A stretch of DNA of 64,000 nucleotides. Source: Patescibacteria group bacterium. Its GTDB lineage: Bacteria; Patescibacteriota; Minisyncoccia; Phycocordibacterales; UBA9973. The notes under the pieces were generated by a model. The model worked only from the letters and a program-made list of their open reading frames with translations. It did not search any database and was not told the DNA's origin. Location: assembly GCA_038063515.1 (NCBI GenBank), contig JBBTUY010000001.1, positions 10,972 to 74,971 of the forward strand. The letters are read 5' to 3'. A program made the translations under genes and the position numbers. Positions 3,018 through 49,538 of the stretch are shown one piece after another (position 1 is the stretch's first letter; each line of letters begins with the position of its first letter).

Positions 3018-3024
3018 GCAAATA

Positions 3025-3651
3025 ATGATAATCACATATTTCGGCAAACAATTTTTTAAAATTACCCAAGGAGAGATGGTCTTAGCCTTCAATCCAGTGA
3101 GCAAGGATTCCAAACTAGACATTTCTACTAAGTTTGGGGCAGATATAGCCCTCGTTACCACAAACCATCCTTTTTACAATGGCATAGAGCAAGTCTCTCA
3201 TGGGGACAGGACACCCTTTACCATCACTGGTCCTGGGGATTATGAGATTAAAGACATATTTATTAAAGGTGTGTTATCTGACGCATCTATCGGTGGTAAA
3301 AAGTATATAAACACTATCTATGCATTTTCTGTCGACAATGTAAAAATAGTCTTTTTAGGTGCATTAGGAGATGGAGGTTTATTAAAAGAGTCACTTGAAA
3401 TGATAAATAATCCTGACATACTTTTTATTCCCGTCGGAGGGGGTGACGTACTAGATGCAAAGTCTGCTGCCAAGCTAGCATCTTCACTCGAACCAAAAAT
3501 GATAATTCCAATGGATTATGACGCAGTCTCCCTTAAAGCATTTTTGAAAGAGACAGCAGAGGAAAAGGCAGAAGTCGTAGAAAAATTAACTTTGAAATTA
3601 AAAGACTTAGATGGCAAGGAGGGTGAAGTACTAGTTTTGAAAGCTATATGA
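3025..3651 (+). CDS. MBL-fold metallo-hydrolase (UPF0173-like)
   Basis: N-terminus MIITYFGKQFF resembles the MKITYLGHSSF start of the family; beta-lactamase-fold motifs are present. Confidence 0.55.
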   Translation: MIITYFGKQFFKITQGEMVLAFNPVSKDSKLDISTKFGADIALVTTNHPFYNGIEQVSHGDRTPFTITGPGDYEIKDIFIKGVLSDASIGGKKYINTIYAFSVDNVKIVFLGALGDGGLLKESLEMINNPDILFIPVGGGDVLDAKSAAKLASSLEPKMIIPMDYDAVSLKAFLKETAEEKAEVVEKLTLKLKDLDGKEGEVLVLKAI

Positions 3652-7966: not shown

Positions 7967-8497
7967 ATGTTCTCTGATCCGGTAAAAAATTTAAAATTGT
8001 TTGGACTAAGAGAAGATAGTATTGTTGCAGACTTGGGAGCTGGGACAGGATTTTATTCTGTGGCTGCGGGGGGCATGGTTCCAAAAGGGAAAGTTTATGC
8101 TATTGAAATAGTAAAAGACTTTTTAACAACAATCAAAAACAAAGTAAAAGACGCACATTTAGACAATGTAGACATCATCTGGGGCAATGTAGAGGACAAA
8201 CACGGCACACATTTGGCTGACAGCATAGTGGACGCAGTTATTGCTTCTAATATTTTCTTCCAAGTAGAAGACAAAAATCAATTTATCGAAGAAATAAAAA
8301 GAATATTAAAACCTTCTGGGAAAATACTTATCATTGACTGGCTTCCCGAAGATTCAAAAGATGCTTTACCTATCAAATTCAAAGGCTCTATGTCTAAAGA
8401 AAGGGCACGGGAGATGTTTGAGAAAAAAGGTCTTTTGTTTGATCGTGACATAGACGCAGGTGTGCATCATTATGGTATGATATTAAAAAAGCAATGA
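7967..8497 (+). CDS. Class I SAM-dependent methyltransferase
   Basis: VADLGAGTGFYS glycine-rich SAM-binding motif. Confidence 0.6.
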   Translation: MFSDPVKNLKLFGLREDSIVADLGAGTGFYSVAAGGMVPKGKVYAIEIVKDFLTTIKNKVKDAHLDNVDIIWGNVEDKHGTHLADSIVDAVIASNIFFQVEDKNQFIEEIKRILKPSGKILIIDWLPEDSKDALPIKFKGSMSKERAREMFEKKGLLFDRDIDAGVHHYGMILKKQ

Positions 8498-9789
8498 AGG
8501 CAAGCTTCCAAATTATATTTATAGTTTTATTTATAGCATCTGCCATATTTGGTGTCTTAGTTTTTTCTGGAATTATAAAACTAGGTGGTGATGATGCTTC
8601 CTCGACTGGTGGTACGGTAGTGCTTTGGGGTACCATTCGAAGTGAAGTTATGGTCGGAGCCCTCGAAGGTTTTAATAACAATAATCAAAATTTTAATGTA
8701 AAGTATGTACAAAAGTCAGCAGAGACTTTCGACAACGACTTACTCGAAGCCCTCGCATCTGGCAAAGGTCCAGATATGTATTTCTTGCCTGACAACCTTG
8801 CGTATCACTATGCAAACAAAATAGGCATCATACCTTACACGAGCTATTCACTCACTTCCTTTAAGAACAACTTTGCCGGAGCAGGGGAAGTTTTCCTCAC
8901 CCCTACGGGGCTACTCGCCTTTCCTATGACCATAGACCCTCTTGTGATGTATTACAACAGGAGCACTTTTGACTCAAATGGTATTATTTATCCACCAACT
9001 ACTTGGGATGAGATCTCAAATGACATAGTTCCTGTTCTTACAAAAAAGAATGAATTAAATAAAATAACAAAAAGTGCAGTGGCACTCGGGCATTTCTCAA
9101 ACGTAAATCATTCAAAAGACATCCTAGCAACTCTTTTCATGCAGGCAAAGAATCCCATTACGACTTTAAATGGCGGAAGACTTCGATCTTCTTTGAGTGA
9201 TTTAAATCCTAAATACAATTTAGGTTCTGTGCTTAAGTTTTATACTGATTTTGCCGACCCATCTCATCCTACTTATTCTTGGAATAAATCTTTTTCAAAT
9301 TCTCTAAATACATTTAGCTCTGAAGACCTCGCTATTTATTTTGGTTTTGCATCTGAGCTGAAGTCTCTCGTAGATAGGAATCCAAATCAGAATTTCTCTG
9401 TAGCACCAGTTCCTCAGATCAAAGGCGAATCTGTTAAAGTCACGGGTGCGAGAGTCATGGGGCTTGCCATATCTTCATTTTCTAAGAATTTTAATACTGC
9501 ATTTACCGCAGCTAGTCTCATGGCAACAGGGGACTTTGCATCTAAGCTCTCTCTTGCTTTAAGTGTGCCCCCTGCAAGGAGAGATTTGCTTGCCATAAAG
9601 CCTGTGGACTCTTATTCACCAATATTTTACAATTCTGCATTATATGCGAGAAGCTACCTTGATCCTTCTTCAGATCAGACAGATGATATTTTCCGTACTA
9701 TGATTGACGGTGTGCTTTCTAACAACATGACCCCAAACGATGCCATATCAGACGCAAGTTCCAAATTAGATCTTTTACTAGCTAAGTAA
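8494..9789 (+). CDS. Membrane-anchored extracellular protein; possible solute-binding (SBP family 1-like)
   Basis: N-terminal TM helix, then TVVLWGTI... and a periplasmic-binding-like composition. Weak assignment. Confidence 0.35.
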   Translation: MKASFQIIFIVLFIASAIFGVLVFSGIIKLGGDDASSTGGTVVLWGTIRSEVMVGALEGFNNNNQNFNVKYVQKSAETFDNDLLEALASGKGPDMYFLPDNLAYHYANKIGIIPYTSYSLTSFKNNFAGAGEVFLTPTGLLAFPMTIDPLVMYYNRSTFDSNGIIYPPTTWDEISNDIVPVLTKKNELNKITKSAVALGHFSNVNHSKDILATLFMQAKNPITTLNGGRLRSSLSDLNPKYNLGSVLKFYTDFADPSHPTYSWNKSFSNSLNTFSSEDLAIYFGFASELKSLVDRNPNQNFSVAPVPQIKGESVKVTGARVMGLAISSFSKNFNTAFTAASLMATGDFASKLSLALSVPPARRDLLAIKPVDSYSPIFYNSALYARSYLDPSSDQTDDIFRTMIDGVLSNNMTPNDAISDASSKLDLLLAK

Positions 9790-9800
9790 TTTATGTTTAT

Positions 9801-10238
9801 ATGAAAAGCTTAACCAAAATTTTAATTTCTTCTTTAGTTTTTATAATTCTCTTGACCCCTGTCATATCTTTTGCCTTTTTGGATTTAAGACAAGGCTTAG
9901 TGACATGTGGTAGAGGTGTAGCTCCTGGTGTACCCGAAGCATACACCCACCCATGTGGATTTAACGACATGATGGATTTTATAAATAACCTTATTCATTT
10001 TGTATTATTTTTCTTAGCTTTACCTATCGCTGCTATAATGGTTGCATATGCAGGATTTTTACTTGTTACCGCAGGAGAAGAGAGTGGCCATGCACGGCAA
10101 AAAGCAAAGAACATATTTACTCATGCTGTTGTCGGCCTTGTCATAGCCATTGCTTCGTGGCTCATTATTCGCTCAGTACTGTCTATAGTAGGATACGATG
10201 GGGCATGGATAGGTTTACCTAAAACAAATGTATTTTAA
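9801..10238 (+). CDS. T4SS pilin-like protein (TrbC/VirB2-type), paralog 1
   Basis: Signal peptide plus two hydrophobic helices around an AGFLLVTAGEE...KAK motif. Confidence 0.55.
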   Translation: MKSLTKILISSLVFIILLTPVISFAFLDLRQGLVTCGRGVAPGVPEAYTHPCGFNDMMDFINNLIHFVLFFLALPIAAIMVAYAGFLLVTAGEESGHARQKAKNIFTHAVVGLVIAIASWLIIRSVLSIVGYDGAWIGLPKTNVF

Positions 10239-10275
10239 TTTTGCCAAAAATTCAATTTGGCGTTACAATATAAAT

Positions 10276-10668
10276 ATGAAATTTTTTATAAGTAACCTGG
10301 TTGTTTTTACTTTTTTAGCTTTTGTTTTATTACTACCAACCTTAACTTTATATGCAGACACAAACCCTGTTCCGCCTACGACTACCCCTACTCCTTCCGG
10401 TAAACTAGTAAATCCAATACCAAGTATCACTTCGATACCTGGCCTTATTAAGACTATATTAGAGGGTCTGCTTAAGATCGGCCTTCCGCTCATAGCACTC
10501 GCTATTATTTATTGTGGATTTCTCTTTGTCGTGGCTCAGGGTAGTGAAGAGAAGCTTACTAAAGCAAAGGATACTTTGCTGTATACGATCATAGGATCAG
10601 CGATACTTCTCGGTTCTTGGGCTATTGCCAAGTTAATAGAGACGACTGTCACAGGTCTTGGAGCATAA
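10276..10668 (+). CDS. T4SS pilin-like protein, paralog 2
   Basis: IYCGFLFVVAQGSEEKLTKAKDTLLYTIIGSAILLGSWAIAK module; ATG 10276 chosen after the upstream stop. Confidence 0.55.
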   Translation: MKFFISNLVVFTFLAFVLLLPTLTLYADTNPVPPTTTPTPSGKLVNPIPSITSIPGLIKTILEGLLKIGLPLIALAIIYCGFLFVVAQGSEEKLTKAKDTLLYTIIGSAILLGSWAIAKLIETTVTGLGA

Positions 10669-10672
10669 ATAT

Positions 10673-11227
10673 ATGCTAAATTTACTAAACACAATACAAG
10701 AAATTCTAAATTCTCTCATACCGTTATTTGTAACTATCGGCATAGTGTATTTCGTATTCGGTGTTGTGCAGTATTTTATAGCTGATGCAGAAGAAGCAAA
10801 AAAGAATGGACGAGATAGGATCATCTATGGAATTATAGGCCTAGCGGCTATTACAGGCCTCTGGGGGCTTGTAAAAATAGTGCAGGACACCTTTGGAGTC
10901 AGCAACTTGTACGATCCAAACGTATCTGTTTCTGGTGTGTGTCGCGTGGGCACAACTTTCGCGACTTTGGTTTATTATATTATTTGCATAATAAATAAAT
11001 CCGTCATACCTCTTTTATTTGCGGTATCCATTTTAGTATTTGTATACGGGACGGTAAACTTCTTCATCATAGGTGCAGGCGAAGAAGCAAAGAGGACTCA
11101 AGGCAAGCAGTTTATGATCTGGGGAGTTGTAGCTCTCACGGTGATGCTCTCAGTTTGGGGATTAGTTAAAATTTTTGGTAGCACTTTTAATATTAATACA
11201 AGCGTCATACCACAGACTAAAGAATAA
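10673..11227 (+). CDS. T4SS pilin-like protein with two tandem pilin modules
   Basis: Two consecutive modules (…ADAEEAKKNGRDRIIYG… and …IIGAGEEAKRTQGKQFMIWG…). Confidence 0.55.
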   Translation: MLNLLNTIQEILNSLIPLFVTIGIVYFVFGVVQYFIADAEEAKKNGRDRIIYGIIGLAAITGLWGLVKIVQDTFGVSNLYDPNVSVSGVCRVGTTFATLVYYIICIINKSVIPLLFAVSILVFVYGTVNFFIIGAGEEAKRTQGKQFMIWGVVALTVMLSVWGLVKIFGSTFNINTSVIPQTKE

Positions 11228-11229
11228 TT

Positions 11230-11682
11230 ATGCTTTGCACATTTGCTACTGACTCAAAAATACAAGACGTACTGAACTACATTACCTGCTTTGTGTCAAA
11301 ATCTATATTGCCTCTCATTTTTACAGTGGCTATAGTCCTCTTTGTTTGGGGTATAGTGCAGTTTTTCATTATAGGTTCAGGTGAAGAGGCAAAGAGGACT
11401 CAGGGCAAGCAGTTTATGATCTGGGGAATACTCGCTATGGCAGTGATCTTGTCTCTCTGGGGGCTCGTACGTATCCTAGGGAGCACTTTTGGCTTAAATA
11501 CAAGTATTTTACCAGGTACTCGGCCCTCGTCTTCTTCTAATTTTAATCCCGCAGGTACAGACCCAATAGACCCAGGGAATTTCCCTATTACCTTACCTGG
11601 GTCTGAGAACAGTGATAACGTGGATTCTCCCATACCTTGTGAGTTTAGTGCAGAAGGTTGCGGTGGTCAGGTTGAGAGTTAG
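11230..11682 (+). CDS. T4SS pilin-like protein, paralog with a Pro/Ser/Gly-rich C-terminal tail
   Basis: IIGSGEEAKRTQGKQFMIWG module nearly identical to the one in the upstream gene. Confidence 0.55.
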   Translation: MLCTFATDSKIQDVLNYITCFVSKSILPLIFTVAIVLFVWGIVQFFIIGSGEEAKRTQGKQFMIWGILAMAVILSLWGLVRILGSTFGLNTSILPGTRPSSSSNFNPAGTDPIDPGNFPITLPGSENSDNVDSPIPCEFSAEGCGGQVES

Positions 11683-11776
11683 CTTTTTATTTAGCGTGTA
11701 GTATAATATATAGGTATTATTTATTATTAAAATAGGTCGCTTATTATTATAAATTTATGTTTGTTAAAAATTAGTT

Positions 11777-12190
11777 ATGAAAAATAAATTAATGGTTTTA
11801 TCAGGTTTAGTTATGATGTCTGCTCCTGTCGTTGCTTTAGCACAGGTGCAAATACAGAGCGGTGGGGCATGTAGTGGTCTTATTGGTACTGGTACAACAC
11901 AAGGAGGAGTAAAGGAGATCATATGTCGTGTTGGAGATATATTAAGTACAATAGTCCCAGTATTGATGGTGCTTGCTATCATCTACTTCGTATGGGGAGT
12001 TATTAACTACGTTATCGCTAGTGATGAAGAAGCTAAAAAAGCAGGAAGAGATAGAATTATCTACGGAGTTATAGGTCTTGCTGTTATCGTCGGTGTATGG
12101 GGACTTGTAAAAATCGTTCAAGATACATTTGGTTTTGATAACACTAATACAAACCCTATAGTTCTACCAACTATCGATATCTATAACTAA
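11777..12190 (+). CDS. T4SS pilin-like protein, paralog
   Basis: Signal peptide ending in ALAQ, plus a VIASDEEAKKAGRDRIIYGVIGLAV module. Confidence 0.55.
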   Translation: MKNKLMVLSGLVMMSAPVVALAQVQIQSGGACSGLIGTGTTQGGVKEIICRVGDILSTIVPVLMVLAIIYFVWGVINYVIASDEEAKKAGRDRIIYGVIGLAVIVGVWGLVKIVQDTFGFDNTNTNPIVLPTIDIYN

Positions 12191-12192
12191 GC

Positions 12193-12516
12193 ATGATGAA
12201 TTTGTTTTCTACTAACATAGCCTATGCTGCGACGCCGGAGCTTGATAAGTTTATCAGGAACGTGGATCGACTTATTATAAATCCCATCATTACCTTACTT
12301 TTTGCTATTGCTGTCGTATATTTTCTTTACGGTGTGTTTCAGTTTTTGTGGGCTAGTGCAAGTGAAGAGAAAAAGACAAATGGCAAGTCGCACATGCTCT
12401 GGGGCATCATCGGGATCACGATCATGATGAGCGTCTGGGCTATCCTTGGTATCGTAATGCGTACCATAGGAGTCACAGGTATTAACCCACAGCAGGGAAC
12501 AGTGGAGCTAAGGTAG
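12193..12516 (+). CDS. T4SS pilin-like protein, paralog
   Basis: LWASASEEKKTNGKSHMLWGIIG module. Confidence 0.5.
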   Translation: MMNLFSTNIAYAATPELDKFIRNVDRLIINPIITLLFAIAVVYFLYGVFQFLWASASEEKKTNGKSHMLWGIIGITIMMSVWAILGIVMRTIGVTGINPQQGTVELR

Positions 12517-16259: not shown

Positions 16260-16332
16260 AGGCCACGGTGGGATTTGCACCCACGCGTCGCGGTTTTGCA
16301 GACCGCTGTGTTAGCTACTTCACCACGTGGCC
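16260..16332 (-). tRNA. tRNA-Cys (anticodon GCA), non-canonical T-loop UGCAAAU
   Basis: 7-bp GGCCACG acceptor stem, 5-bp anticodon stem with CTGCAAA loop, 5-bp T-stem; 3-bp D-stem. Confidence 0.65.
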
Positions 16333-17040
16333 TTCTATTATCCTTTTCATTACTTTATCGATAACTTGCGGTCGTAATTTAAAGTAATTATTGAATATTC
16401 TAAATTTTCGCATAAAAAAGGAATTAATGCTAGTGCCTTTATACATCAGCTTAAATAACTCTAAAGAATCTTTTGTATTATATATTAATTGATAGGATCT
16501 TTTACTTACATATATTTTACCATTTTTAATCTCAGCAATTTCTAAAGAAGCCTGCATTTCTTGAAGAAATAATTTACTACCACTTGTAAATATTACACGT
16601 ACTCTTTTGATAATTAATTTTTGAGTTTTACCTTTAGTTTGTAGAAAACTAACACAACCATCACCATCAAAATATCCTCTGACAAAGTCACCTAAGTATT
16701 TTTTTGGAATTTTAGGAAAATTTATCGTTAAGGATTTATTTGGGTATAATCCTAATTTAAAAAGGTCGTTATATATTTTATGGCTGCCTATTCTTAATAT
16801 AAAACAAATTTTTCCTCCTATGAAATTTGATTTTTTCTGACCAATTTTATGCTCAGAATTTAGCCAGTTTTTAATTCTATATATAGAATCTTCATCTGTG
16901 CTTGTTATTTGTATGTATTTACCACGCATGTAAGGGGAATCATCTAAGCTTCCATCAGCGTAGATATAACCTAAAACATATCCCATAGTCGGTGACCATT
17001 TTTTAAAAAACTTTTCGTTAACTTTATATTTTAATCCCAC
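16315..17040 (-). CDS. LAGLIDADG homing endonuclease, double-motif, free-standing
   Basis: Two motifs, LGYIYADGSL and VRGYFDGDGCVSF, about 100 aa apart. The 3' end overlaps the 5' end of tRNA-Cys by about 18 nt. Confidence 0.75.
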   Translation of the reverse strand: MGLKYKVNEKFFKKWSPTMGYVLGYIYADGSLDDSPYMRGKYIQITSTDEDSIYRIKNWLNSEHKIGQKKSNFIGGKICFILRIGSHKIYNDLFKLGLYPNKSLTINFPKIPKKYLGDFVRGYFDGDGCVSFLQTKGKTQKLIIKRVRVIFTSGSKLFLQEMQASLEIAEIKNGKIYVSKRSYQLIYNTKDSLELFKLMYKGTSINSFFMRKFRIFNNYFKLRPQVIDKVMKRIIEGHVVK

Positions 17041-39710: not shown

Positions 39711-39738
39711 AAAAATCCCCTTTATAAGAGGATTTTTT
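39711..39738 (+). terminator. Terminator hairpin AAAATCCCC...GAGGATTTTTT after rpsI
   Basis: Stem with one mismatch followed by T6. Confidence 0.55.
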
Positions 39739-39739
39739 G

Positions 39740-39748
39740 TGCTATAAT
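39740..39748 (+). promoter_or_regulatory. Extended -10 promoter TGcTATAAT, 6 nt upstream of the grpE ATG (leaderless arrangement)
   Basis: TGnTATAAT read directly at 39740-39748; ATG at 39755. Confidence 0.45.
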
Positions 39749-39754
39749 ACACAT

Positions 39755-40348
39755 ATGAGTGACGAAAATGAGCTAAATAAAGAAGAAGAAATCTCTATAC
39801 CCGAAGAGGAAACTGAGGTTGAAGAATTTGAATTCAATGATGACGGGGAGGAGGATTTAAAGAAAACTCTTAAGAAATTAAGGGTGGATTTGAAAGTTGC
39901 TAAGAAAGAAAAAGAAGAATACCTGACAGGCTGGCAGAAAGAGCGAGCGGACTTTATAAATTACAAAAAAGAAGAGGCGACCAGACAGAGCATGATGTCA
40001 AATGTTTTTCGTGAAAGTATAATTTCAGAATTTTTATCTGTGGCAGATAGCTTTGATGTGGCATTTTCCAACAAGGAGGCATGGGAAAAAGTAGATGCAA
40101 ACTGGCGTACAGGCGTCGAGTACATTTATTCTCAAATGAATGGCATCTTTGAAAATTACGGAGTGAAAAGCTTGGGTGTAGAAGGAGAGAATTTTGATCC
40201 CAATATTCACCAGTCTATAGAAGTAGTAGATACAGACAAAAAAGATCTTGATCACAAAGTAGCAAAAGTAATTCAAAAAGGTTATAAGCTCGGCGAACGA
40301 GTCATGCGCCCTGCTCGGGTAAATGTATACGAATACAAAGATTTGTAG
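39755..40348 (+). CDS. grpE: Nucleotide exchange factor GrpE
   Basis: RADFINYKKE (GrpE RxEFxNYRKR-like) and C-terminal GYKLGERVMRPARVNV. Confidence 0.8.
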   Translation: MSDENELNKEEEISIPEEETEVEEFEFNDDGEEDLKKTLKKLRVDLKVAKKEKEEYLTGWQKERADFINYKKEEATRQSMMSNVFRESIISEFLSVADSFDVAFSNKEAWEKVDANWRTGVEYIYSQMNGIFENYGVKSLGVEGENFDPNIHQSIEVVDTDKKDLDHKVAKVIQKGYKLGERVMRPARVNVYEYKDL

Positions 40349-40364
40349 ACGTCCGACGTCTACA
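40344..40364. repeat. Perfect palindrome TGTAGACGTC-C-GACGTCTACA spanning the grpE stop codon
   Basis: 10-bp arms read directly. Followed by A5 rather than a T-run, so it is not a canonical terminator. Confidence 0.4.
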
Positions 40365-40402
40365 AAAAGCTTAGTTTATCATATATGATATATTAAGGAT
40401 TT

Positions 40403-42094
40403 ATGAAAAGTGAAACTAAAAACTGCCAGAATTGTAAAAAAGATTTCGTAATAGAAACTGAGGATTTTGACTTTTATGAAAAGATAAAAGTGCCTCCACC
40501 GACGTGGTGCCCAGAGTGTAGGCAAGTACGTCGCTATGCTTGGAGAAATGAACGTACTCTGTACAGGAGAAACTGTGATCTCTGTAAGAAAAATATGGTG
40601 ACAATATATTCACCGAACAAACCATTTGTAGTGTATTGCAATGAATGCTGGTGGGGTGATGGCTGGGATCCAGCTTCGTATGCCAAAGATTTTGACTTTT
40701 CAAGGCCATTTTTCGAGCAATTTTCTGAGCTCCAGCACGAAGTCCCCCGTATGGCACTTTTAAATAAAAATAGTACTAATTCAGAGTATACTAACCATGC
40801 CGCTAATAATAAAAATTGTTATCTATCATTTACACTTATTGATGATGAAAATGTTATGTATAGTGCGTGGGTTGTAAAATCTCGTGATTGTGTAGATTGT
40901 AGTTTTATATATGAGAAAGGGGAGCGGCTTTATGAAGTAATTGATTCCCGTACTTGTTATCAGTGTCAGTACGGACTTTTTTTTAAAGACTGTTCGTCAG
41001 TGTATTACTCTTATGATTGCCATAGTTGCAATGAATGCTTTTTATCTTCAAATTTACGTAATAAAAGTTATGTTTTTAAAAATGTTCAATACTCGAGGGA
41101 AGAATATTTAGAAAAAATAAAAGAATATAATTTATCTTCTTTTGAAGTACGACAGAAATTAAATGAAGAATTTAAAAATCTATTGGAAAATATTGCTGTC
41201 CACAAGTATGTCGTCAATGAAAGAAACGTAAATTCTACAGGGTCCTTAATTTATGACTGTAAGGATGTAAATAAGGCATTTGAAGTTTATAAAGGAGAAA
41301 ATGGTAAATATATTTATGGTGCAATAAATATAAAAGACTCTATGGATTTGTACCACATAGATGGAGCTGAGTTGTGCTATGAGGTTCATGCTGGTATTAG
41401 AAATACTAATTCCCAGTTTATTACTCTCTGCTATGATAATACTTATATCATTTATAGTGATACCTGTCATAACAGTCAAAACCTTTTCGGCTGTGTTAGC
41501 GTCAAGAAAGGTGAATATGTGATTTTAAATAAGAAATACAGTAAAGAGGATTATCTTATTTTAAGAGAAAAGATTATTGAACATATGAAAAAGGGAGGGG
41601 AATACGGAGAATTTTTTCCTCCCTCCATTGCTCCTGTCACCTACAATGAGACTCAGGGGAATTTATATGAGCCTATGACCAAAGAGGAGGTCTTGGCTAA
41701 GGGATGGAACTGGGAAGAAAATGTACCAGGGACATTTGGTAAAGAAACTATTCCTCACGACCAAATACCAGACAAAATAGAAGATGTCCCCGATTCATAT
41801 TTGAAAGAGATTTTTATTTGTACCGAGTGCTCGAAGAATTACAATATTAATCAAAATGAACTTCTTTTTTATAAAAAAGAAAAAATCCCACTTCCTAGGA
41901 AATGCCCAAATTGTAGATACAAAAGGAGATTTGACTTAAGACCACTTCGCAAGTTGTGGCATCGTATTTGTATGTGCTCGCAAAAGCATAATAATCATGA
42001 AGGTAAATGTGAAGTAGAATTTGAGACCCCATATTCTCCGGATAGAGTTGAAAAAGTGTATTGCGAAAAATGCTACCAGCAAGAAGTCTACTAA
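40403..42094 (+). CDS. Cysteine-rich protein with N- and C-terminal zinc-ribbon modules and internal Cys repeats (hypothetical)
   Basis: About 40 Cys. N-terminal CQNCKKDFVIETEDFDFYEKIKVPPPTWCPECRQVRR and C-terminal CTECSKNYNINQNELLFYKKEKIPLPRKCPNCRYKRR are homologous CxxC...CPxCR ribbons. Confidence 0.5.
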   Translation: MKSETKNCQNCKKDFVIETEDFDFYEKIKVPPPTWCPECRQVRRYAWRNERTLYRRNCDLCKKNMVTIYSPNKPFVVYCNECWWGDGWDPASYAKDFDFSRPFFEQFSELQHEVPRMALLNKNSTNSEYTNHAANNKNCYLSFTLIDDENVMYSAWVVKSRDCVDCSFIYEKGERLYEVIDSRTCYQCQYGLFFKDCSSVYYSYDCHSCNECFLSSNLRNKSYVFKNVQYSREEYLEKIKEYNLSSFEVRQKLNEEFKNLLENIAVHKYVVNERNVNSTGSLIYDCKDVNKAFEVYKGENGKYIYGAINIKDSMDLYHIDGAELCYEVHAGIRNTNSQFITLCYDNTYIIYSDTCHNSQNLFGCVSVKKGEYVILNKKYSKEDYLILREKIIEHMKKGGEYGEFFPPSIAPVTYNETQGNLYEPMTKEEVLAKGWNWEENVPGTFGKETIPHDQIPDKIEDVPDSYLKEIFICTECSKNYNINQNELLFYKKEKIPLPRKCPNCRYKRRFDLRPLRKLWHRICMCSQKHNNHEGKCEVEFETPYSPDRVEKVYCEKCYQQEVY

Positions 42095-42097
42095 AAT

Positions 42098-42676
42098 TTA
42101 TTTACAAAAACTCTCTAAAAGTATTTTCTTAGTTTCTTCGTCTATCATTTGAGTGACGATGATCATGATCTCAGTTGTAAATCCGAGATCTTTTTTAATA
42201 TTTATAAAAAGATGTTCGTACGGGTAGGGGGATATCCATGCAGAATTTTTAAGACATACAAAGCCTGCTTTTTTAAGGAGATAACGCATGCTTTCGCGTT
42301 CACTTTTTCTATCTTCTGGTATGTCGAGAAGTATGATCCTCCAATATCCATCCCACTTGGTGCTCACCATTCCTGTAGTGTTTTCTAGTTTGAGGCTATG
42401 AGTCTTTTTCTTACCTTCTTTTGTGAGTCTCACATAATCATTTTGAGGAGAAGAGATTTGCTCTATAAGCCCAGCTTCCCGGAGTCCTTTGAGGGATCGG
42501 GTAATAGCGTATTTCTGATCAGATAGAGGTTTAGCCTCTATCTTAGAATTATTTAAATTACTTAGGTGTCCAACACCTAAGTTGTGTATTTCAGACAGGG
42601 AAATAGCGGGTTTTTGACCTAAAATCCTTAATATTTTCTTTGAGTATTGATTGTCTTTCTTGTCTTTGCTTGACAT
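42098..42676 (-). CDS. Winged-HTH transcriptional regulator, PaaX-like C-terminal domain (tentative)
   Basis: N-terminal wHTH (KKILRILGQKPAISLSEI), C-terminal WDGYWRIILLDIPEDRKSERESMRYLLKKAGF resembling PaaX_C. Divergent from dnaK. Confidence 0.4.
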   Translation of the reverse strand: MSSKDKKDNQYSKKILRILGQKPAISLSEIHNLGVGHLSNLNNSKIEAKPLSDQKYAITRSLKGLREAGLIEQISSPQNDYVRLTKEGKKKTHSLKLENTTGMVSTKWDGYWRIILLDIPEDRKSERESMRYLLKKAGFVCLKNSAWISPYPYEHLFINIKKDLGFTTEIMIIVTQMIDEETKKILLESFCK

Positions 42677-42784: not shown

Positions 42785-44701
42785 ATGTCAAAAATAATAG
42801 GTATAGATTTAGGTACAACAAACTCAGCGGTCGCTTTCATCGAAGGTGGAGCACCAAAAATAATAGAAAACATAGAAGGCTCTCGTACGACTCCTTCGAT
42901 AGTTTCTGTTGCTAAAAATGGAGATAGACTCGTCGGTCTCCTTGCAAAGAGACAAGCCGTCACAAATCCAGAAAATACTGTTTACGGTATCAAGCGTTTT
43001 ATGGGTCACAATTTTGAAGATCCAGAAGTGCAGAAGGACTTAAAAAATGCATCTTTCAAAATTCAAAAAGGAACAAATGGTGGTGTTGAAGTAAAGATTG
43101 GTGATAAATGGATGAGACCAGAAGAAATCTCTGCAATGATTTTAGGTAAAATAAAGGCAGACGTAGAAGCAAAACTCGGAGAGAAGATAACAGAAGCTGT
43201 GATTACAGTTCCTGCATATTTTAACGATGCTCAGAGAAAAGCTACAAAAGACGCAGGTGCAGTCGCAGGACTTGATGTAAAGCGTATTATAAACGAGCCT
43301 ACAGCAGCAGCGCTCGCATACGGATTTAATAAAAAGAAAAATGAAAAAATAGTAGTCTACGACTTCGGTGGAGGAACATTTGATGTATCTGTGCTCGAGA
43401 TTGGTGACGACGTTATCGAAGTTAAGTCTACAGACGGAGACAGTCACTTAGGTGGTCGTGATATAGATCACAAGATCATCGCATGGATCGCGGAAGAGTA
43501 TAAGAAGACTTCAGGTGTAGATGTACGCAACGACAAGCTCGCATTACAGAGACTCGATGAGGCGGCAGAAAAAGCGAAGATCGAACTTTCTACTTCTATA
43601 GAAACAGAAATAAATATTCCATTTATAACTTCTACAGCCGAAGGCCCTCAGCACTTACTTTTGAAGATGACACGTGCACAACTCGAAGCTATAGCAGAAG
43701 AATATATAAACCGTTCTATAGAGATCACAAAGCGTGCTATGTCTGCATCTGGTTTTAAAATGGAAGACATGAATGAGATCATCATGGTCGGAGGTCAAAC
43801 AAGAATGCCTAGAATAGTGGAGGAAGTTAAAAAAGTTTTTGGTAAAACTCCAAACCTTTCTATAAATCCTGACGAAGTGGTAGCGCTCGGTGCTGCGGTG
43901 CAGGCTGGAGTATTGCAGGGTGATGTGCGTGATGTACTTCTTCTCGATGTTATACCTCTTTCTCTCGGTATTGAGACTCTAGGAGGAGTAGCGACAAAGT
44001 TAGTCGAAAGAAATACAACTATCCCATCAAATAAATCTCAGACTTTTTCTACAGCTGCTGACAACCAGACTTCTGTGGAGATACACATAGTCCAAGGTGA
44101 GCGTCCAATGGCGTCTGATAACAAATCTCTAGGAAGATTCATCTTAGATGGAGTTCCACCAGCACCACGCGGTATGCCTCAGATCGAAGTATCTTTTGAT
44201 GTGGATGCAAACGGAATACTAAATGTTACTGCAAAGGATAAAGCTTCAGGTAAAACACAATCCATAAAGATCGAAGCAAGCTCTGGACTTAAAGATGAAG
44301 ACATAAAGAAAATGCAGGCTGATGCTGAGCTTCATGCAGACGAAGATAAAAAGAAGAGAGAATTAGTAGATGTGAAGAATACAGCAGAGATGATCATCTA
44401 CACTGCGGAGAAAGCTATTAAAGATGCTGGTGATAAAATTCCTGCTGAATTAAAAACAGAAGTAGAATCCAAGATCGCTATAGTAAAAAGTGTCAAAGAT
44501 GGCACTGACGAGCTTGCGATAAAGAAAGCTACAGAAGAGCTATCTAATGAAATGTCAAAGATCGGTGAAGCGATGCAAAAAGCAGGCGCAACTGATTCAG
44601 CCTCTTCAGGACCTTCAACTCCCGAAGAACAGCCAGCAGAAGTCAATGACGCTGAATTTAAAGAAAAAGAAGGAGGAGAGGGAGAGCAACCCAAAGCATA
44701 A
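42785..44701 (+). CDS. dnaK: Chaperone DnaK (Hsp70)
   Basis: [23 protein letters not shown] and the full NBD plus SBD organisation. Confidence 0.95.
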
Positions 44702-44831: not shown

Positions 44832-46916
44832 ATGGAATTTCCAGAAATACCTAAAAATAGAGATATAACCTATTTGGGTCTTACCACGTATAGAGATAAA
44901 AATACGCTCTTCGGCATAAAGCGTAAAGACAGGCGTCAGCATGTATACATTCTCGGAAAGTCCGGTACAGGTAAGTCTGTACTCATGTTTAATATGATTA
45001 TACAAAACATCCAGAATGGGGACGGTGTTTGTTTAGTTGACCCTCACGGAGAAAATGTTGAAGGAGTGCTTTCTTCTATTCCTCCACACAGAGTAAAGGA
45101 TGTAGTTTATTTTAACCCTGCAGATACGGAGCACCATATTGGTTTTAATGTTTTAGAATTAGTTGACCCTCAATACAAGCACCTAGTAGCTTCTGGGCTC
45201 ATGGGAATCTTTACAAAGATATGGGCAAATGCATGGTCTGCTCGTATGGAATACATTTTAAACAATACTATTCTTGCACTTCTTGATACTCCAGGTTCTA
45301 CAATGCTCGGCATTCCTCGAATGCTCGTAGACAAAGATTATCGTCAGAAAATAATTTCAAATTTAAAAGACCCTGTCATTAAAGCCTTCTGGGTGCATGA
45401 ATATGAAGCATGGCAAGATAAATTTAGAAATGAAGCAATAGCACCAATACAAAACAAAGTAGGGCAATTCCTCTCTACGTCTATCATAAGAAATGTTGTC
45501 GGGCAGTCAAAGAGCACTATAGACATTTTCAACATGATGAATGAGGGAAAGATTTTCCTTGTGAATGTTTCTAAGGGTCGCATAGGTGAGGACAACTCTG
45601 CGTTGCTTGGAGGTATGATCATTACCAAGATCCAGCTTGCAGCCATGGAGCGTGTGAGAATTCCTGAAGATTCTCGTCGTGACTTTTATTTATATGTCGA
45701 CGAATTTCAAAATTTCGTTACAGATGCTTTTGCTGGGATTTTGTCTGAGGCTCGAAAATACCGACTAAACCTTACAGTGGCTCACCAGTACACAGCTCAG
45801 CTCGTCTCAGACAAGAGTACGGCAGTGCGTGACGCAGTCTTCGGTAACGTAGGAACCATGATCATTTTTCGTGTCGGTTCTGACGACGCAGAATTCTTAG
45901 AAAAAGAATTTGATCCAGAGTTTACTCCACAGGATATTGTAAATCTTCCAAACTATAAAATTTATCTAAAGCTCATGATAGACGGCGTGACTTCTCGCCC
46001 ATTTTCTTCGAGGACGTTACCTCCTATGGTAAAGTCTGGAAATAAAGAAATAGAAGAGGCTGTTATAAAGTCTTCTCGCGAGCTTTATTGTAAATCAAAA
46101 GAAGAAATAGAAAGAGAAATAAATAATTGGAGTGGCATGTCTCTCGGTGGTGAAGGAGGCGAGTCGGTGAATCAGCCTACGGGTAAATTTGAAATTACAT
46201 GCTCTGCATGTAAGAAGCAGACCACTGTGCCATTTAAGCCTGAGGGAGGTAGGCCCGTGTATTGTAAGGAATGTATGGCAAAGATAAAATCAGGGGAGTT
46301 AAAAGTACAAAAAGGAAAAGACGATCAGATTAAATACGATGATTCAAAGTTTTACAAACCTCTTGCTGATCTTGGTATAGAATACAAGCCTAAGGATGAA
46401 GGCGTAAAATCTGTCATTAATTCTGCCATTAATAAGGAATTAAAAGAAGTAAAGGAGGTTCCTAAAGAAATGCAAAAAGAAAAGGTTGTAAAAAAAGAGG
46501 AAGAAAAACCTCCTTACGTGCAAAAACAAGAAGTTTCACCCCTTAAACAAGCCTTAAATAAAATTACAGAGATAATAAAAACAGAGCCTGCTCCTGTAGT
46601 GGAAGAAGTAAAGGAAACAATAAATAAAGAAGAACCTTCTCCGGAACTTTTAAAAGAGAAAATAAAAGTAATTGCAAAAAAGTCTACAATAGTAACCACC
46701 TCAAAAGATAAATCTGCAAGTAAAGAAGATATGAAAAAACTAAGAGACTTCTTGGCTTCTGCCCCTATGAAACAAACTGAAGAAAATACTAAAAAAGAAA
46801 TTCCTGAAATACAAAAAGAGCCAGAAGTAAAGCCAAGTGAAGAGGATGTTGTACCTCTTCCTAAAAAGCCAAAAGAAGTTCCAGAGGAAGTTTTACGAAA
46901 GATCTTAGAAGATTAA
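44832..46916 (+). CDS. Soluble VirD4/TraG-like (type IV coupling protein family) P-loop ATPase with C-terminal zinc ribbon and Lys/Glu-rich disordered tail
   Basis: Walker A ILGKSGTGKS, then CLVDPHGE; Walker B YLYVDEFQNF; ARKYRLNLTVAHQYTAQL (T4CP RKYG...Q..QL-like). CSACKK...RPVYCKECM ribbon. No TM helices. Confidence 0.55.
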   Translation: MEFPEIPKNRDITYLGLTTYRDKNTLFGIKRKDRRQHVYILGKSGTGKSVLMFNMIIQNIQNGDGVCLVDPHGENVEGVLSSIPPHRVKDVVYFNPADTEHHIGFNVLELVDPQYKHLVASGLMGIFTKIWANAWSARMEYILNNTILALLDTPGSTMLGIPRMLVDKDYRQKIISNLKDPVIKAFWVHEYEAWQDKFRNEAIAPIQNKVGQFLSTSIIRNVVGQSKSTIDIFNMMNEGKIFLVNVSKGRIGEDNSALLGGMIITKIQLAAMERVRIPEDSRRDFYLYVDEFQNFVTDAFAGILSEARKYRLNLTVAHQYTAQLVSDKSTAVRDAVFGNVGTMIIFRVGSDDAEFLEKEFDPEFTPQDIVNLPNYKIYLKLMIDGVTSRPFSSRTLPPMVKSGNKEIEEAVIKSSRELYCKSKEEIEREINNWSGMSLGGEGGESVNQPTGKFEITCSACKKQTTVPFKPEGGRPVYCKECMAKIKSGELKVQKGKDDQIKYDDSKFYKPLADLGIEYKPKDEGVKSVINSAINKELKEVKEVPKEMQKEKVVKKEEEKPPYVQKQEVSPLKQALNKITEIIKTEPAPVVEEVKETINKEEPSPELLKEKIKVIAKKSTIVTTSKDKSASKEDMKKLRDFLASAPMKQTEENTKKEIPEIQKEPEVKPSEEDVVPLPKKPKEVPEEVLRKILED

Positions 46917-46931
46917 TTTAATAATTTATAT

Positions 46932-48410
46932 ATGCCAAAGCCAAATAGAATACAAATAATAAAATACGGTCCACCACCACCAGAACTTCCTGTTTTCGGT
47001 AAGGTAAAACCTGAAGACGTATCTTTTATAGGCCGTACGAATTACGTGGCTGCACTTGAAGAAAAGAAATTCGTCTTTGGTATCAAAAGGGTAGATAGGA
47101 GAAGGCACCTATACATCATAGGAAAGTCGGGAGTGGGGAAGACTAAGCTTCTTGAGCTTTTTTTGCGTCAGGATATCACCTATGGACATGGACTTTGTCT
47201 CATAGACCCTCACGGAGACGTGATAGACGCAATGCTTGATTATATTCCTAAGGAACGCATTGATGACGTATGTATTATAGACCCATCTGATATTGATTTC
47301 CCTGCATCATTTAATCCTCTTTCAAACGTGGATCCTATGTTTAAGTTTCAGCTTACGCAAGGACTCATCGAAGTTTTCCAAAAGCAATTCGGAGCCAACT
47401 GGACTCCACGTCTTGAGCACGTTTTTCGTTTCACTTGCCTTGCACTTCTAGACTATCCTCATGCGACGATGCGTGGAATGATATCAATGCTTACAGATAG
47501 AAACTACAGACAGAAAGTTGTGGAATACATCACAGATGACATGGTGAAAAGATTCTTCGCTATTGAATTCGCTGATTGGTCTGAGAAGTTCGATACTGAC
47601 GCTATAATCCCGCTTGTAAACAAACTAGGACAATTTCTCTCTGACCCACTGCTACGTAATATTTTCGGTCAGAAACAAAACAAAATAGACATAAGCAAGC
47701 TCATGAATACTCAAAAGATAATTTTTATTAATTTATCTAAGGGTCGCCTCGGTGAGGAGAATTCTTCATTTCTCGGTTCTATGTTTTTAACAAAGATAAA
47801 ACAAGCAGGCATGGAGCGTGCAGGTATGCCAGAGAGTGCACGTAAAGACTTCTACATATATGTGGATGAGTTTCAGAATGTTGTGACGCAAACATTTGAA
47901 AATATTTTATCTGAGGCCCGTAAGTACGGACTCAATCTCACCATGGCTCACCAGTATGTGGGACAAATAATCACAAAAGTTCACCAAGCTGTACTTGGTA
48001 ACTGCGGTAGTATTATTACTTTTCGTATAGGTGGTGAAGATGCAGTGAAATTAAAACCAGAATTTTCCCCACTTTTTGATGTTAAAGATATGATCAATCT
48101 CGCTGTGACAGAATTTTATATAAAAATGACTATTGATGGTGAATCTTACGATCCATTTTCAGCTGAGACTTTACGAGTTTTACCTCCAACGCACGAGTCT
48201 TATAGAGAAGAAATAATTGCTGCATCTAGAGCAAAATATTCAATACCCAAAGATGATGCACAGAAATTAATTGCTGAAGAAGAAGCCACTATCATCAGAA
48301 GCGTCGAAGAAAAGGCTATGATCGAAGGTAAAGCAAAGAATAAAGACGGTATGGGTAATGAAACAACAGAAACTCCAAAAGTAAAAGAAGAAGTGCAGCC
48401 AATGATATAA
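46932..48410 (+). CDS. Soluble VirD4/TraG-like P-loop ATPase, paralog of the upstream gene
   Basis: IIGKSGVGKT / CLIDPHGD / YIYVDEFQNV / ARKYGLNLTMAHQYVGQI in the same order as in 44832-46916. Confidence 0.55.
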   Translation: MPKPNRIQIIKYGPPPPELPVFGKVKPEDVSFIGRTNYVAALEEKKFVFGIKRVDRRRHLYIIGKSGVGKTKLLELFLRQDITYGHGLCLIDPHGDVIDAMLDYIPKERIDDVCIIDPSDIDFPASFNPLSNVDPMFKFQLTQGLIEVFQKQFGANWTPRLEHVFRFTCLALLDYPHATMRGMISMLTDRNYRQKVVEYITDDMVKRFFAIEFADWSEKFDTDAIIPLVNKLGQFLSDPLLRNIFGQKQNKIDISKLMNTQKIIFINLSKGRLGEENSSFLGSMFLTKIKQAGMERAGMPESARKDFYIYVDEFQNVVTQTFENILSEARKYGLNLTMAHQYVGQIITKVHQAVLGNCGSIITFRIGGEDAVKLKPEFSPLFDVKDMINLAVTEFYIKMTIDGESYDPFSAETLRVLPPTHESYREEIIAASRAKYSIPKDDAQKLIAEEEATIIRSVEEKAMIEGKAKNKDGMGNETTETPKVKEEVQPMI

Positions 48411-48452: not shown

Positions 48453-49538
48453 ATGAACAAAGACTATTATGAAACATTAGGAGTAAATAAAAATGCCTCA
48501 AAAGAAGAAATCAAGAAGGCTTTTTATAAGCTCGCACACAAATACCACCCTGATAAAAAAGACGGAAATGAAGCTAAATTCAAGCAGGTAAATGAAGCGT
48601 ACCAAGTGCTCTCTGATGACTCTAAACGCTCTAAATATGACCAATACGGCTCTCAATATGAAAACATGGGTCATGCACATGCCGGACACCAAGGTGGCGG
48701 ATTTGAAGGTTTTGACTTTAGTGGCTTTGGACAGGGTGGGGCAGAGTTTGATTTTGGAAACTTAAACGATATCTTTTCTGATTTCTTTGGAGGTGGTATG
48801 GGAGCAAGAAGAGAACAAAGAAGAGGTAGAGACATTTCTACAGAAATACAAGTATCTTTTAGTGATGCTGTTTTTGGCATCACCAGAAAAGTTCTTATCA
48901 CAAAGACTTCTACTTGTGTGACATGTGATGGTAAAGGTGCGAAAATAGGTACTAAAATGGAAACCTGTAAGACATGTAATGGTCAAGGTAAGATACACGA
49001 AACAAAAAGATCATTCCTTGGAAATATTTCTACTACCAAAGTATGTGAGACATGTTTTGGTAGCGGTGAAGTACCAAAAGAAGTCTGTGATAAATGTAAA
49101 GGTAAAGGAGTACTTCGTCGTGAAGAAGAGATAACTATTATGATCCCTGCTGGCATCAGAGACGGTGAGATGATACGTATGACAGGCATGGGCGAAGCAG
49201 TTTCGAGAGGTATGACAGGGGACTTGTATATCAAGATAAACGTTGCTCCACACCCACTATTTAAACGTGACGGTAATGATTTGGTTATGAATCTCGATTT
49301 AAATTTATCTGATGCATTACTCGGTATGAAATATCCTGTAAAAACTTTAGATGGAGACATAGAAGTCACTATTCCTGAAGGAGTAAAGATAAATGAAGTG
49401 CTCCGAGTACGTGGCAAGGGTGTACCAAATAAAAATAAAAGAGGAGACTTGCTTATAAAATTAAATATAAAACTTCCACATAAGATTTCCAAAAAATCTC
49501 GTGAACTTATCGAGCAGCTTAAAAAAGAGGGGATATAA
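48453..49538 (+). CDS. dnaJ: Chaperone DnaJ
   Basis: J-domain with HPD (KYHPDK), G/F-rich linker, four CxxCxGxG repeats. Confidence 0.9.

Follow-up and report, generated by a model that had tools for sequence, protein, structure and literature searches.

A heavily expanded, Patescibacteria-restricted protein family with likely zinc-finger ends and a duplicated 12-residue solenoid core

What is a cysteine-rich protein of 563 residues doing between grpE and dnaK? This question is raised by an open reading frame (ORF) in a 64,000-nucleotide stretch of contig JBBTUY010000001.1 from a Patescibacteria group bacterium, hereafter the window. The ORF is present exactly as noted in a preliminary description made from the sequence, and we refer to its product as protein X. 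X contains 31 Cys, 44 Tyr and 11 CxxC motifs, is acidic overall, and is soluble, with neither a transmembrane (TM) segment nor a signal peptide (maximum 19-residue hydropathy 0.67). The identical protein in NCBI (P0001) is named 'hypothetical protein AAB510_00310, Patescibacteria group bacterium'. As detailed below, X belongs to a new soluble protein family that is restricted to Patescibacteria, also called the candidate phyla radiation (CPR), and heavily expanded there, and that carries likely zinc sites and a duplicated solenoid core with a 12-residue period. This is the firm result of the present analysis. From its N-terminus to its C-terminus, X is organized as follows (pLDDT, predicted local distance difference test).

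40403 to 42094, forward strand: protein X, complete ORF of 563 residues plus stop, from an ORF scan and its translation.
40415 to 40540, forward strand: finger F1 (residues 5-46), zf_Tbcl-like treble clef, C8-x2-C11-x24-C36-x2-C39.
40562 to 40666, forward strand: finger F2 (residues 54-88), zf_Tbcl_2-like, C58-x2-C61-x17-C79-x2-C82.
40667 to 40753, forward strand: connector (residues 89-117), DP..Y..DFDFSRPFFEQF.EL...VPR, with a predicted helix at 103-113 (pLDDT >90).
40754 to 41095, forward strand: solenoid half 1 (residues 118-231), some 8-9 coils, each of 12 residues, and the cap motif NLRNKxYxxxNxQY.
41096 to 41197, forward strand: helical hairpin between the halves (residues 232-265), with helices 232-240 and 247-264 in the model.
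41198 to 41542, forward strand: solenoid half 2 (residues 266-380), homologous to half 1 and ending in FGCxGLxxKxYCILNKQY.
41543 to 41812, forward strand: helix plus conserved acidic domain (residues 381-470), motifs GEYGEFFP and SPFxYNET.
41813 to 41938, forward strand: finger F3 (residues 471-512), zf_Tbcl, C473-x2-C476-x24-C501-x2-C504.
41939 to 42091, forward strand: finger F4 (residues 513-563), divergent zf_Tbcl_2-like, C523(-x-C525)...C536-x17-C554-x2-C557.

The two ends of X had been described as homologous zinc ribbons, on the basis of two peptides that we find verbatim at residues 8-44 and 473-509. The homology stands: residues 1-107 and 461-563 align in BLASTP at 33% identity over 91 columns (E 2e-14), with residues 8-88 pairing with 473-563, and a profile-profile comparison of the N- and C-terminal modules (HHalign, 101 diverse homologues) gives 99.8% probability and an E-value of 3e-28. 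The repeated unit, however, is not a single ribbon; it is a two-finger module, F1 plus F2 being matched by F3 plus F4. Similarly, the sequence pattern proposed to be shared by the two ends is there, but in both copies 12 residues, rather than 17-20, separate the first CxxC from the FY.

The fingers appear to belong, as divergent members, to two Pfam families, zf_Tbcl (PF13451) and zf_Tbcl_2 (PF23477), which are the sole recurrent Pfam families among 70 diverse members of the X family. PF13451 matches residues 5-44 of the query, within F1, with an E-value of 0.003 and 17.9 bits (gathering cutoff 24), and matches 25 of the 70 members at E≤0.01 (best 1.4e-6), whereas the hand-assembled consensus of the C-terminal module (F3) reaches 27.7 bits, above the cutoff of 24. 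For PF23477, the corresponding figures are an E-value of 0.013 and 15.6 bits for residues 535-561 (cutoff 27), 16 of 70 members (best 1.2e-8), and 22.2 bits for the hand-assembled N-terminal consensus against the cutoff of 27; the same residues 535-561 match TIGR04272 with an E-value of 0.004 and 16.7 bits (cutoff 36). Several homologues carry a precomputed PF13451 match. In particular, the zf_Tbcl motif can be followed through F1 (C8..C11..F22-x-F24-Y25..K27..V30-P31-x-P33..C36..C39-R40) and, with one lysine assigned doubtfully, through F3 (C473..C476..F489-Y490..K494?..P496-x-P498..C501..C504-R505). In the AlphaFold2 (AF2) model, helices 37-45 and 502-510 are predicted to start at the second knuckles; an Arg-rich helix (R40, R43, R44, R48) follows F1, which is modelled at pLDDT >90, and a basic helix (R505, R509) follows F3. 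The CxxC-x17-CxxC spacing of the second family is complete in F2 and is retained in F4 as C536-x17-C554-x2-C557, the first knuckle of F4 being non-canonical (C523-x-C525...C536).

Covariation of the cysteines was followed in a family alignment of 516 sequences (effective number of sequences 286). C61, C79 and C82 of F2 covary perfectly (r=1.00, frequency 0.63), as do, nearly so, C476, C501 and C504 of F3 (r=0.86-0.94, frequency about 0.8). The Cys pattern noted earlier is thus kept in homologues to different degrees: at 96-98% in F1 (C8, C11, C36, C39), at 97-99% in the near-universal F4 (C523, C536, C554, C557), at about 80% in F3 and at about 63% in F2. F2 is dispensable in about 37% of the family and F3 is lost as a block in about 19%; in defined subfamilies the two are lost together, and F1 and F4 are intact in about 100%. 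Because their cysteines are gained and lost as blocks (r = 0.86-1.00 across the 516 homologues), the fingers behave as real four-ligand metal sites. X itself would therefore be expected to bind zinc, with four likely zinc sites, reduced to two in some subfamilies.

The origin of these ends is suggested by a stand-alone protein. A tblastn search of phages retrieved a 93-residue ORF on the phage-like contig MT837064, which aligns to residues 8-83 of X at 34% identity and scores 88.7 bits for zf_Tbcl and 72 bits for zf_Tbcl_2. The X-module consensuses match zf_Tbcl and then zf_Tbcl_2, in the same order as in the stand-alone pair, so we regard both modules of X as divergent copies of a [zf_Tbcl][zf_Tbcl_2] unit that existed beforehand. 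On that contig (MT837064.1, positions 2299-3258 of locus L085), the 93-residue two-finger gene lies about 110 bp downstream of a gene for an extracytoplasmic-function (ECF)-type sigma factor (Sigma70_r2 3e-14, r4_2 8e-12) and occupies the usual position of an anti-sigma factor. As a single-case lead, the two-finger module may bind the transcription machinery.

Between the terminal modules, the two halves of the core are themselves homologous: residues 116-240 and 267-392 align in HHalign with 99.9% probability and an E-value of 2.6e-36. BLASTP self-comparison of the middle region detects no repeats; they become visible by profile-profile comparison and by autocorrelation. Specifically, the family-averaged hydropathy autocorrelates at lag 12 (r=0.56 in half 1 and 0.49 in half 2) and at lag 24, with a 3-residue sub-period. 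Both halves end in a NLRNKxYCIxNKQYSKEEY motif followed by a helix, and the hairpin that separates them (residues 232-265) is the least conserved segment (mean top-residue frequency 0.36). In line with the sub-period, the positions at which Cys is frequent fall on a strict i+3 lattice, running from 127 to 224 and from 275 to 373, with a register shift of one residue between 166 and 173 and another between 278 and 286. When the sequence is written in rows of 12 residues, positions 3, 6, 9 and 12 are small (C/S/A/G/T/V, 0.6-0.9), positions 7-8 are K/E/D/N, and positions 10-11, where conservation is highest, are aromatic or acidic; conservation amounts to 2-3 bits at positions 7-11, versus 0.5-1.4 bits at the hypervariable positions 1-2 and 4-5. 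This i+3 register of small residues points to a narrow beta-solenoid with small interior residues and exterior ladders.

The same lattice bears on the cysteines of the core, which the preliminary description had taken for internal Cys repeats with possible ribbon or redox roles. Only one segment, C206-H-S-C-N-E-C212, fits the proposed C-x2-C-x-[EY]-C repeat. Given the strict lattice, the variable occupancy (0.2-0.9) and the weak covariation (r ≤ 0.39), most of these cysteines are packing residues, and a role for them in metal binding or redox chemistry was rejected on the lattice and the covariation together. Possible extra sites are C206/C209/C212(/C215) and C355/C364/C373, the cysteines of the caps, which are well conserved.

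Two independent AF2 models, of X and of a paralogue, were obtained at pLDDT 86.4 with a predicted template modelling score (pTM) of 0.86 and at pLDDT 90.8 with a pTM of 0.89. In the paralogue model, half 1 is predicted as regular strands of about 4 residues with 2-residue turns (pLDDT 93-97). The acidic domain, modelled at pLDDT 93-95, has a net charge of -10 and a pI of 4.4, and its residues G402, P406, N415 and E416 are invariant; in or beside the connector, W88, D98, F103, Q106 and P115 are invariant or nearly so. Foldseek searches of PDB and BFVD, by which alone fold novelty was judged, return no significant structural neighbour for either model; the weak neighbours of both are solely left-handed beta-helix (LbH) proteins, with E-values from 1e-3 to above 1, TM-scores of at most 0.11 and root-mean-square deviations of 16-23 Å. 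By sequence, the core of about 370 residues has no match in Pfam, NCBIfam, PDB sequences (as single query and as profile), PADLOC or PHROGs. As anticipated earlier, no enzymatic motif is recognized in Pfam, NCBIfam or PDB sequence searches, and no characterized family is matched there, these sources giving sub-threshold zinc-finger matches at most.

How widespread is this architecture? A word-indexed search retrieves at least 7,500 proteins, of which the top 120 are about 70% identical over the full length. An exhaustive search of 50%-identity representatives finds 3,747 clusters at E≤1e-3 and 1,516 at E≤1e-30, and the best 150 representatives are nearly all 545-600 residues long with a single full-length match. 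X relatives are encoded at at least 555 loci in GTDB species genomes, and at least 155 clusters at about 48% identity exist within the locus sample. All named organisms are Patescibacteria (Nomura-, Pacei-, Staskawicz-, Ryan-, Brenner-, Portnoy-, Giovannoni-, Sungii-, Falkow-, Abawaca-, Peregrini/Peribacteria and Gracilibacteria), alternative-code genomes among them. A few third-party-annotation bins labelled 'Saccharibacteria' also carry the family, and this label is doubtful because of their Nomurabacteria-like synteny and identity. The relatives are absent from IMG/VR contigs and plasmids, and phages give a match to the finger module alone, so an origin from mobile elements or defence systems was rejected. 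Source names are always 'hypothetical' or automatic labels derived from the finger, and we found no description of the family in the literature. The family, and two-thirds of X itself, are thus without a described relative. Longer members offer no informative domain fusion, their extra length being loop insertions in the fingers. One longer protein, P0271 (731 residues), contains about 110 garbled Arg/Gly/Leu-rich residues followed by a repeated '...YLILNKQHTKEEYEALVPRIIEHM...' segment; it is apparently chimeric, and is probably an assembly or frameshift artefact rather than a genuine fusion.

Among the subfamilies, the one that contains the window copy is the largest and the most conserved, and this copy has all four fingers intact. 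Across orthologues at the same loci, X is 69-74% identical, to be compared with 70-75% for GrpE, 68-74% for ribosomal protein S9, 78-86% for L13 and 81-90% for DnaK.

The genomic organization of the family was surveyed in 81 non-redundant, phylogenetically non-independent loci. At least two X copies are present in 53 of them, with a maximum of 8 copies per 16 kb. Wherever two X genes adjoin (89 pairs), both run in the same direction, and the median gap is 27 bp. Several assemblies contain 5-8 or more X copies in the fragments seen, and one Gracilibacteria locus (L087) holds 10 paralogues in 19.7 kb. Five contexts recur: (i) S13-S11-S4-rpoA-L17-L13-S9-grpE-X (1-5 copies)-[PaaX-like gene on the opposite strand]-dnaK-T4CPa, represented in the window by a single X; (ii) X-X-T4CPb-dnaJ; (iii) scpA-scpB-X-mraY-ftsW-murG; (iv) mreB-...-X; and (v) pure X arrays. 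The position between grpE and dnaK, which had been called unusual, is indeed so, yet it is conserved across genomes, with the PaaX_M gene on the opposite strand sitting before dnaK.

The sole recurrent partner outside housekeeping functions is a VirD4/TraG/TrwB-like ATPase related to type IV coupling proteins (T4CP), encoded within two genes of X in 17 of the 81 loci; judged by sequence, the other genes that recur beside X in Paceibacteria loci have ordinary housekeeping functions, with no dedicated partner among them. Patescibacteria genomes carry about 2 orphan T4CP genes each (PMC12102498). Given about 2 such genes in a genome of roughly 900, fewer than one T4CP-adjacent locus in 81 would be expected by chance. 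The linkage spans Paceibacteria, Peregrinibacteria, Abawacabacteria and alternative-code Gracilibacteria, and in the latter three the T4CP-like genes are embedded in X arrays (L043, L049, L068, L088). A radical-SAM (S-adenosylmethionine) maturase partner, as in ribosomally synthesized and post-translationally modified peptide (RiPP) systems, had also been considered; none occurs among the recurrent or homology-labelled neighbours of the 81 loci or in the three Pfam-annotated loci, so that a conserved radical-SAM neighbour is excluded, although singleton ORFs were left unannotated and an occasional one is possible. In the window, two such ATPase genes lie in tandem between dnaK and dnaJ.

44832 to 46916, forward strand: T4CPa, soluble VirD4/TraG/TrwB-like ATPase and candidate partner of X (TrwB_AAD_bind 1.7e-10; zf_Tbcl_2 1.8e-14).
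46932 to 48410, forward strand: T4CPb, soluble VirD4/TraG-like ATPase, whose orthologues often lie directly beside X arrays and dnaJ.
48453 to 49538, forward strand: dnaJ.

T4CPa carries a zf_Tbcl_2 finger of its own at residues 453-485 and a K/E-rich tail of 200 residues. Both ATPases match phrog_5156 (E 7e-62 and 6e-54) and the PADLOC mad8 and HerA models. Since both are devoid of TM segments, the two fall outside the canonical, membrane-anchored coupling proteins. If the X family has a shared partner, the finger-bearing soluble ATPase is the strongest candidate.

Taken together, a constant frame, one hypervariable face and optional inner fingers lead us, tentatively, to read the X family as modular adaptors or scaffolds, with constant zinc-finger docking ends and a solenoid face specific to each paralogue. 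X is the grpE-linked, most conserved member of a Patescibacteria-restricted, paralogous cytoplasmic family with a pseudo-symmetric build, in the order [zf_Tbcl][zf_Tbcl_2], solenoid half, helical hairpin, solenoid half, acidic helix/loop domain, [zf_Tbcl][zf_Tbcl_2]. The constant parts (F1, F4, the Arg-rich helices, solenoid positions 7-11, the connector and the acidic domain) may serve a shared docking function, whose target could be nucleic acid or the linked zinc-finger-bearing T4CP-like ATPase, while the hypervariable solenoid positions 1-2 and 4-5, together with the dispensable F2 and F3, would set the ligand specificity of each paralogue. In this reading, the copy in the window would fill the housekeeping role, its expression being stoichiometric with that of the chaperone operon.

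Several points weigh against this proposal. The adaptor model is drawn from conservation patterns and gene order. Half 2 of the solenoid is modelled at a pLDDT of only about 70 in both models, which were read for strands, helices and pLDDT. The pI of the zinc modules, 7-9, is only mildly basic and lends weak support to nucleic-acid binding. Because the surveyed loci are phylogenetically non-independent, the enrichment of ATPase adjacency is overstated, and 64 of the 81 loci have no T4CP-like gene beside X, many copies standing among unrelated housekeeping genes. Finally, the invariant polar residues D98, Q106, N415 and E416 outside the solenoid could mark a catalytic pocket.

Among the alternatives, one that is possible, if unlikely, takes the X proteins for lineage-specific nucleic-acid-binding regulators, in which fingers and Arg-rich helices bind DNA or RNA, the solenoid is a sensor or protein-interaction domain, and different paralogues control different operons or RNAs. 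The four fingers, the arginines that are conserved with i, i+4, i+8 spacing behind F1 and F3, the presence of zf_Tbcl_2 in the neighbouring DNA-translocase-like ATPase and the scattering of copies beside many different housekeeping operons are in line with this idea, as is, from a single case, the stand-alone two-finger gene directly after an ECF sigma-factor gene. A possible transcription role has also been discussed for zinc-binding small proteins with the CxxC-x17-CxxC pattern (PMC12704099). However, arrays of 8-10 adjacent paralogues are atypical of regulators, the mild basicity of the modules is set in a protein that is acidic as a whole, no known DNA- or RNA-binding fold is matched, and no conserved operator was identified.

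The links to coupling ATPases and chaperones also allow X proteins to be seen as cargo or effectors, recognized through their terminal zinc modules by the VirD4-like ATPases, kept transport-competent by DnaK/DnaJ/GrpE and exported by a type IV secretion system (T4SS) into host cells. We consider this rather improbable. Tandem arrays of diversified paralogues, their repeated adjacency to T4CP-like genes, the chaperone linkage, six T4SS-pilin genes in the same window (three scanned, all matched) and the wide occurrence of T4SS in Patescibacteria would all agree with it, and T4SS genes other than T4CP are essential for the epibiotic growth of Southlakia epibionticum (PMC12102498). On the other hand, the same study reports that T4CP is not essential in Southlakia and that only 148 of 5,713 Patescibacteria T4CPs lie near virB4. 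Moreover, the linked ATPases lack a membrane anchor, X orthologues are about 70% conserved like GrpE and S9, where an effector would typically evolve fast, an unfolding-dependent channel would be ill suited to four tightly folded zinc sites and a rigid solenoid, and X is co-transcribed with ribosomal-protein genes.

A broader idea, to which we also assign a low probability, would join the two partners: X proteins, with the soluble VirD4/TraG-like ATPases that are orphans, may form an unrecognized, Patescibacteria-wide cytoplasmic machine, in which a hexameric translocase is loaded by, or acts on, a large set of zinc-finger-capped solenoid proteins (an adaptor repertoire that gives specificity in handling nucleic acid or protein, or diversified, host-destined cargo or effectors), coupled in Nomurabacteria to the DnaK/DnaJ/GrpE operon. 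If so, a joint X-ATPase machine would explain why Patescibacteria genomes hold about 2 T4CP genes far from T4SS loci.

It is very doubtful that X proteins are cytoskeletal rods of the bactofilin type, associating end to end through their homologous terminal modules into hetero-polymers that act in cell shape, division or host attachment. The solenoid-like core, ends that could pair, many paralogues per genome and some envelope or division contexts (mreB-...-X; scpAB-X-mraY-ftsW-murG) speak for such rods, but there is no Pfam bactofilin match or other similarity, the pTM values of 0.86-0.89 suggest a compact monomer and not a free rod, polymerization has no supporting sign, and the neighbours are diverse housekeeping genes rather than specifically morphogenetic ones.

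An enzymatic role is, in our view, similarly hard to credit. The active site would be built from D86/D98/Q106 and E403/Y414-N415-E416-T417, with the solenoid as a platform for a substrate that differs by paralogue. These candidate residues are invariant or more than 90% conserved across subfamilies at 35-45% identity, and the segments that contain them are modelled at pLDDT >90. Enzymes are numerous among beta-helix proteins, and LbH acyltransferases make up all of the weak Foldseek neighbours. Yet Pfam, NCBIfam, PDB sequence and fold searches reveal no catalytic motif or enzyme family, the 12-residue coils depart from the 18-residue LbH geometry, and the conserved residues may be mere domain-interface residues.

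An anti-phage or conflict-system role, put forward in the preliminary description and prompted by a Cys-rich, multi-finger, arrayed protein adjoining HerA/FtsK-superfamily ATPases that match PADLOC mad8 and HerA models, is scarcely tenable, since X has no PADLOC family at E≤0.1, no PHROG match and no nuclease or other effector domain, its family is absent from viral contigs, phages and plasmids, and it keeps fixed syntenic positions in core operons with housekeeping-level conservation.

We return to the window locus, where X is flanked by the following features.

39737 to 40348, forward strand: grpE, directly upstream of X (Pfam GrpE, E 3.7e-36), the last gene of the ribosomal-protein/rpoA operon before X.
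40342 to 40397, forward strand: grpE-X spacer with two predicted RNA hairpins (dG -20.7 kcal/mol, z = -4.45).
42098 to 42676, reverse strand: PaaX_M/winged-helix regulator-like gene (192 residues; PF20803, E 1.1e-19), convergent with X and divergent from dnaK.
42785 to 44701, forward strand: dnaK.

In most other genomes, the distance from the grpE stop to the X start is 10 bp or less or the genes overlap, and X is therefore regarded as co-transcribed with grpE at the end of the ribosomal-protein/rpoA operon. The spacer is 54 nt long here. Its first predicted hairpin (40342-40366) is an 11-bp perfect stem overlapping the grpE stop codon, and its second (40370-40397) is AU-rich and is predicted to cover the X Shine-Dalgarno sequence. 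These hairpins are specific to this genome, grpE and X abutting in the related genomes examined; the spacer RNA has no Rfam family match, and its predicted folding may point to an RNA thermometer or to a site of processing. The 11-mer TTATCATATAT occurs 11 times in the window with up to one mismatch, against 3.4 expected (none of 100 shuffles reaches 11), and its only two exact copies lie at 40376, just upstream of X, and at 42686, in the dnaK promoter. As a shared operator of the family it was rejected: other genomes lack the grpE-X spacer, so it is not a family feature.

The PaaX-like gene is conserved at the same position in 12 loci; as a PaaX_M (Cas2-like) gene, it occupies the place where HrcA/CIRCE would be expected. 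The sigma-70-like promoter that scores best in the scan, TTGACA-18-TATACT (11/12), lies upstream of dnaK, and eight genomes share there a conserved TATCATATATACT box and an imperfect inverted repeat (ACAAGTATTT-GGTGGTCACG-AAATACCTGT). The PaaX-like protein and this upstream repeat may constitute a CPR-specific heat-shock regulator and its operator. Elsewhere, a TrmB-type winged-helix gene diverges from the first X gene of the array in three of three loci of Peregrinibacteria and Gracilibacteria (L086, 8013-8843; L087, 17823-18590; L088, 6010-6774), of which L087 and L088 show in-frame UGA codons and hence an alternative genetic code; by comparison, these regulators are not homologues of the PaaX-like gene of the window.

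Two further parts of the window were recorded. At 8494-12516, six genes for small membrane proteins stand in tandem after a gene for a solute-binding protein, and T4SS_pilin (PF18895) matches three of the three that were scanned (E 5e-7 to 4e-13); from these matches, the segment looks like an expanded type IV secretion pilin array. A free-standing LAGLIDADG homing-endonuclease gene (PF14528, E 7e-12; 16315-17040, reverse strand) adjoins apparent rbfA- and infB-like genes, whose names are unverified.

Patescibacteria make up a large share of bacterial diversity with genomes of about 1 Mb, and their lineage-specific proteins are mostly uncharacterized. Within such genomes, the X family fills a striking share of the coding space, with up to 8-10 tandem genes of 1.7 kb at one locus and several loci per genome. 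Its cost and its constraint make a central place in CPR cell biology likely, and an important cellular role is suggested by the number of tandem copies and by the links to chaperones and orphan secretion ATPases. With it, the orphan VirD4-like ATPases of CPR also gain a first candidate partner. In structural terms, the models predict a cytoplasmic beta-solenoid of 12-residue coils with treble-clef caps, which has no solved or described counterpart in the libraries searched. The family merits an entry in Pfam, as a domain of unknown function (DUF), and its solubility, confident models and predicted zinc dependence make it tractable to study.

Several known systems invite comparison with X. Stand-alone [zf_Tbcl][zf_Tbcl_2] proteins share with X the order of the fingers and their motifs (CxxC...F.F...FY..K...P.P..C..CR, then CxxC-x17-CxxC with ..VYC..C), and zinc binding has been shown experimentally for small CxxC-x17-CxxC proteins of Methanosarcina mazei (PMC12704099). 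X differs in having two modules with about 380 residues between them, a core that has no counterpart there, and fingers so divergent that they mostly fall below the Pfam cutoffs for the query; these small proteins supply no mechanism for X.

For the core, a geometric likeness is found in the antifreeze protein of Tenebrio molitor (TmAFP, 1EZG), whose repeat pattern is TCTxSxxCxxAx and which, like X, has a 12-residue period with a small residue, often Cys, at each third, inward position. 1EZG is the sole non-zinc-finger PDB profile match to X, at an insignificant E of 1. Unlike TmAFP, X has neither the TxT (TCT) ice-binding ladder nor regular disulfide pairs, its Cys occupancy being that given above, and there is no significant sequence or Foldseek similarity and no Pfam match. 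Additionally, X is cytoplasmic and bacterial, and its two halves of about 8-9 coils each are flanked by zinc fingers. The likeness is, by this analogy, one of geometry and not of membership.

LbH proteins (GlmU, LpxD, PglD and gamma-carbonic anhydrase) resemble X in their strands of about 4 residues and turns of 2 residues. Membership in the LbH or hexapeptide-repeat group was rejected on the period of 12 (r 0.5) instead of 18 (r 0.14-0.23), the low TM-scores and the lack of a Hexapep Pfam match; X also lacks the context of an acyltransferase active site. Bactofilins (DUF583) are likewise cytoplasmic bacterial beta-solenoids with multiple paralogues, sometimes encoded near cell-shape or division genes. 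X differs from them in coil length and in its zinc-finger caps, and neither the query nor the 70 members show sequence or Pfam similarity to them.

Finally, the X loci recall VirD4/TraG/TrwB systems in that genes for coupling ATPases lie near X arrays and the window ATPase shares a finger family with X. In contrast to those systems, the X-linked ATPases have no N-terminal membrane anchor, no relaxase or T4SS channel gene accompanies X, and known T4CP substrates and adaptors are unlike X. In Patescibacteria at large, T4CPs are mostly unlinked to virB4 (PMC12102498).

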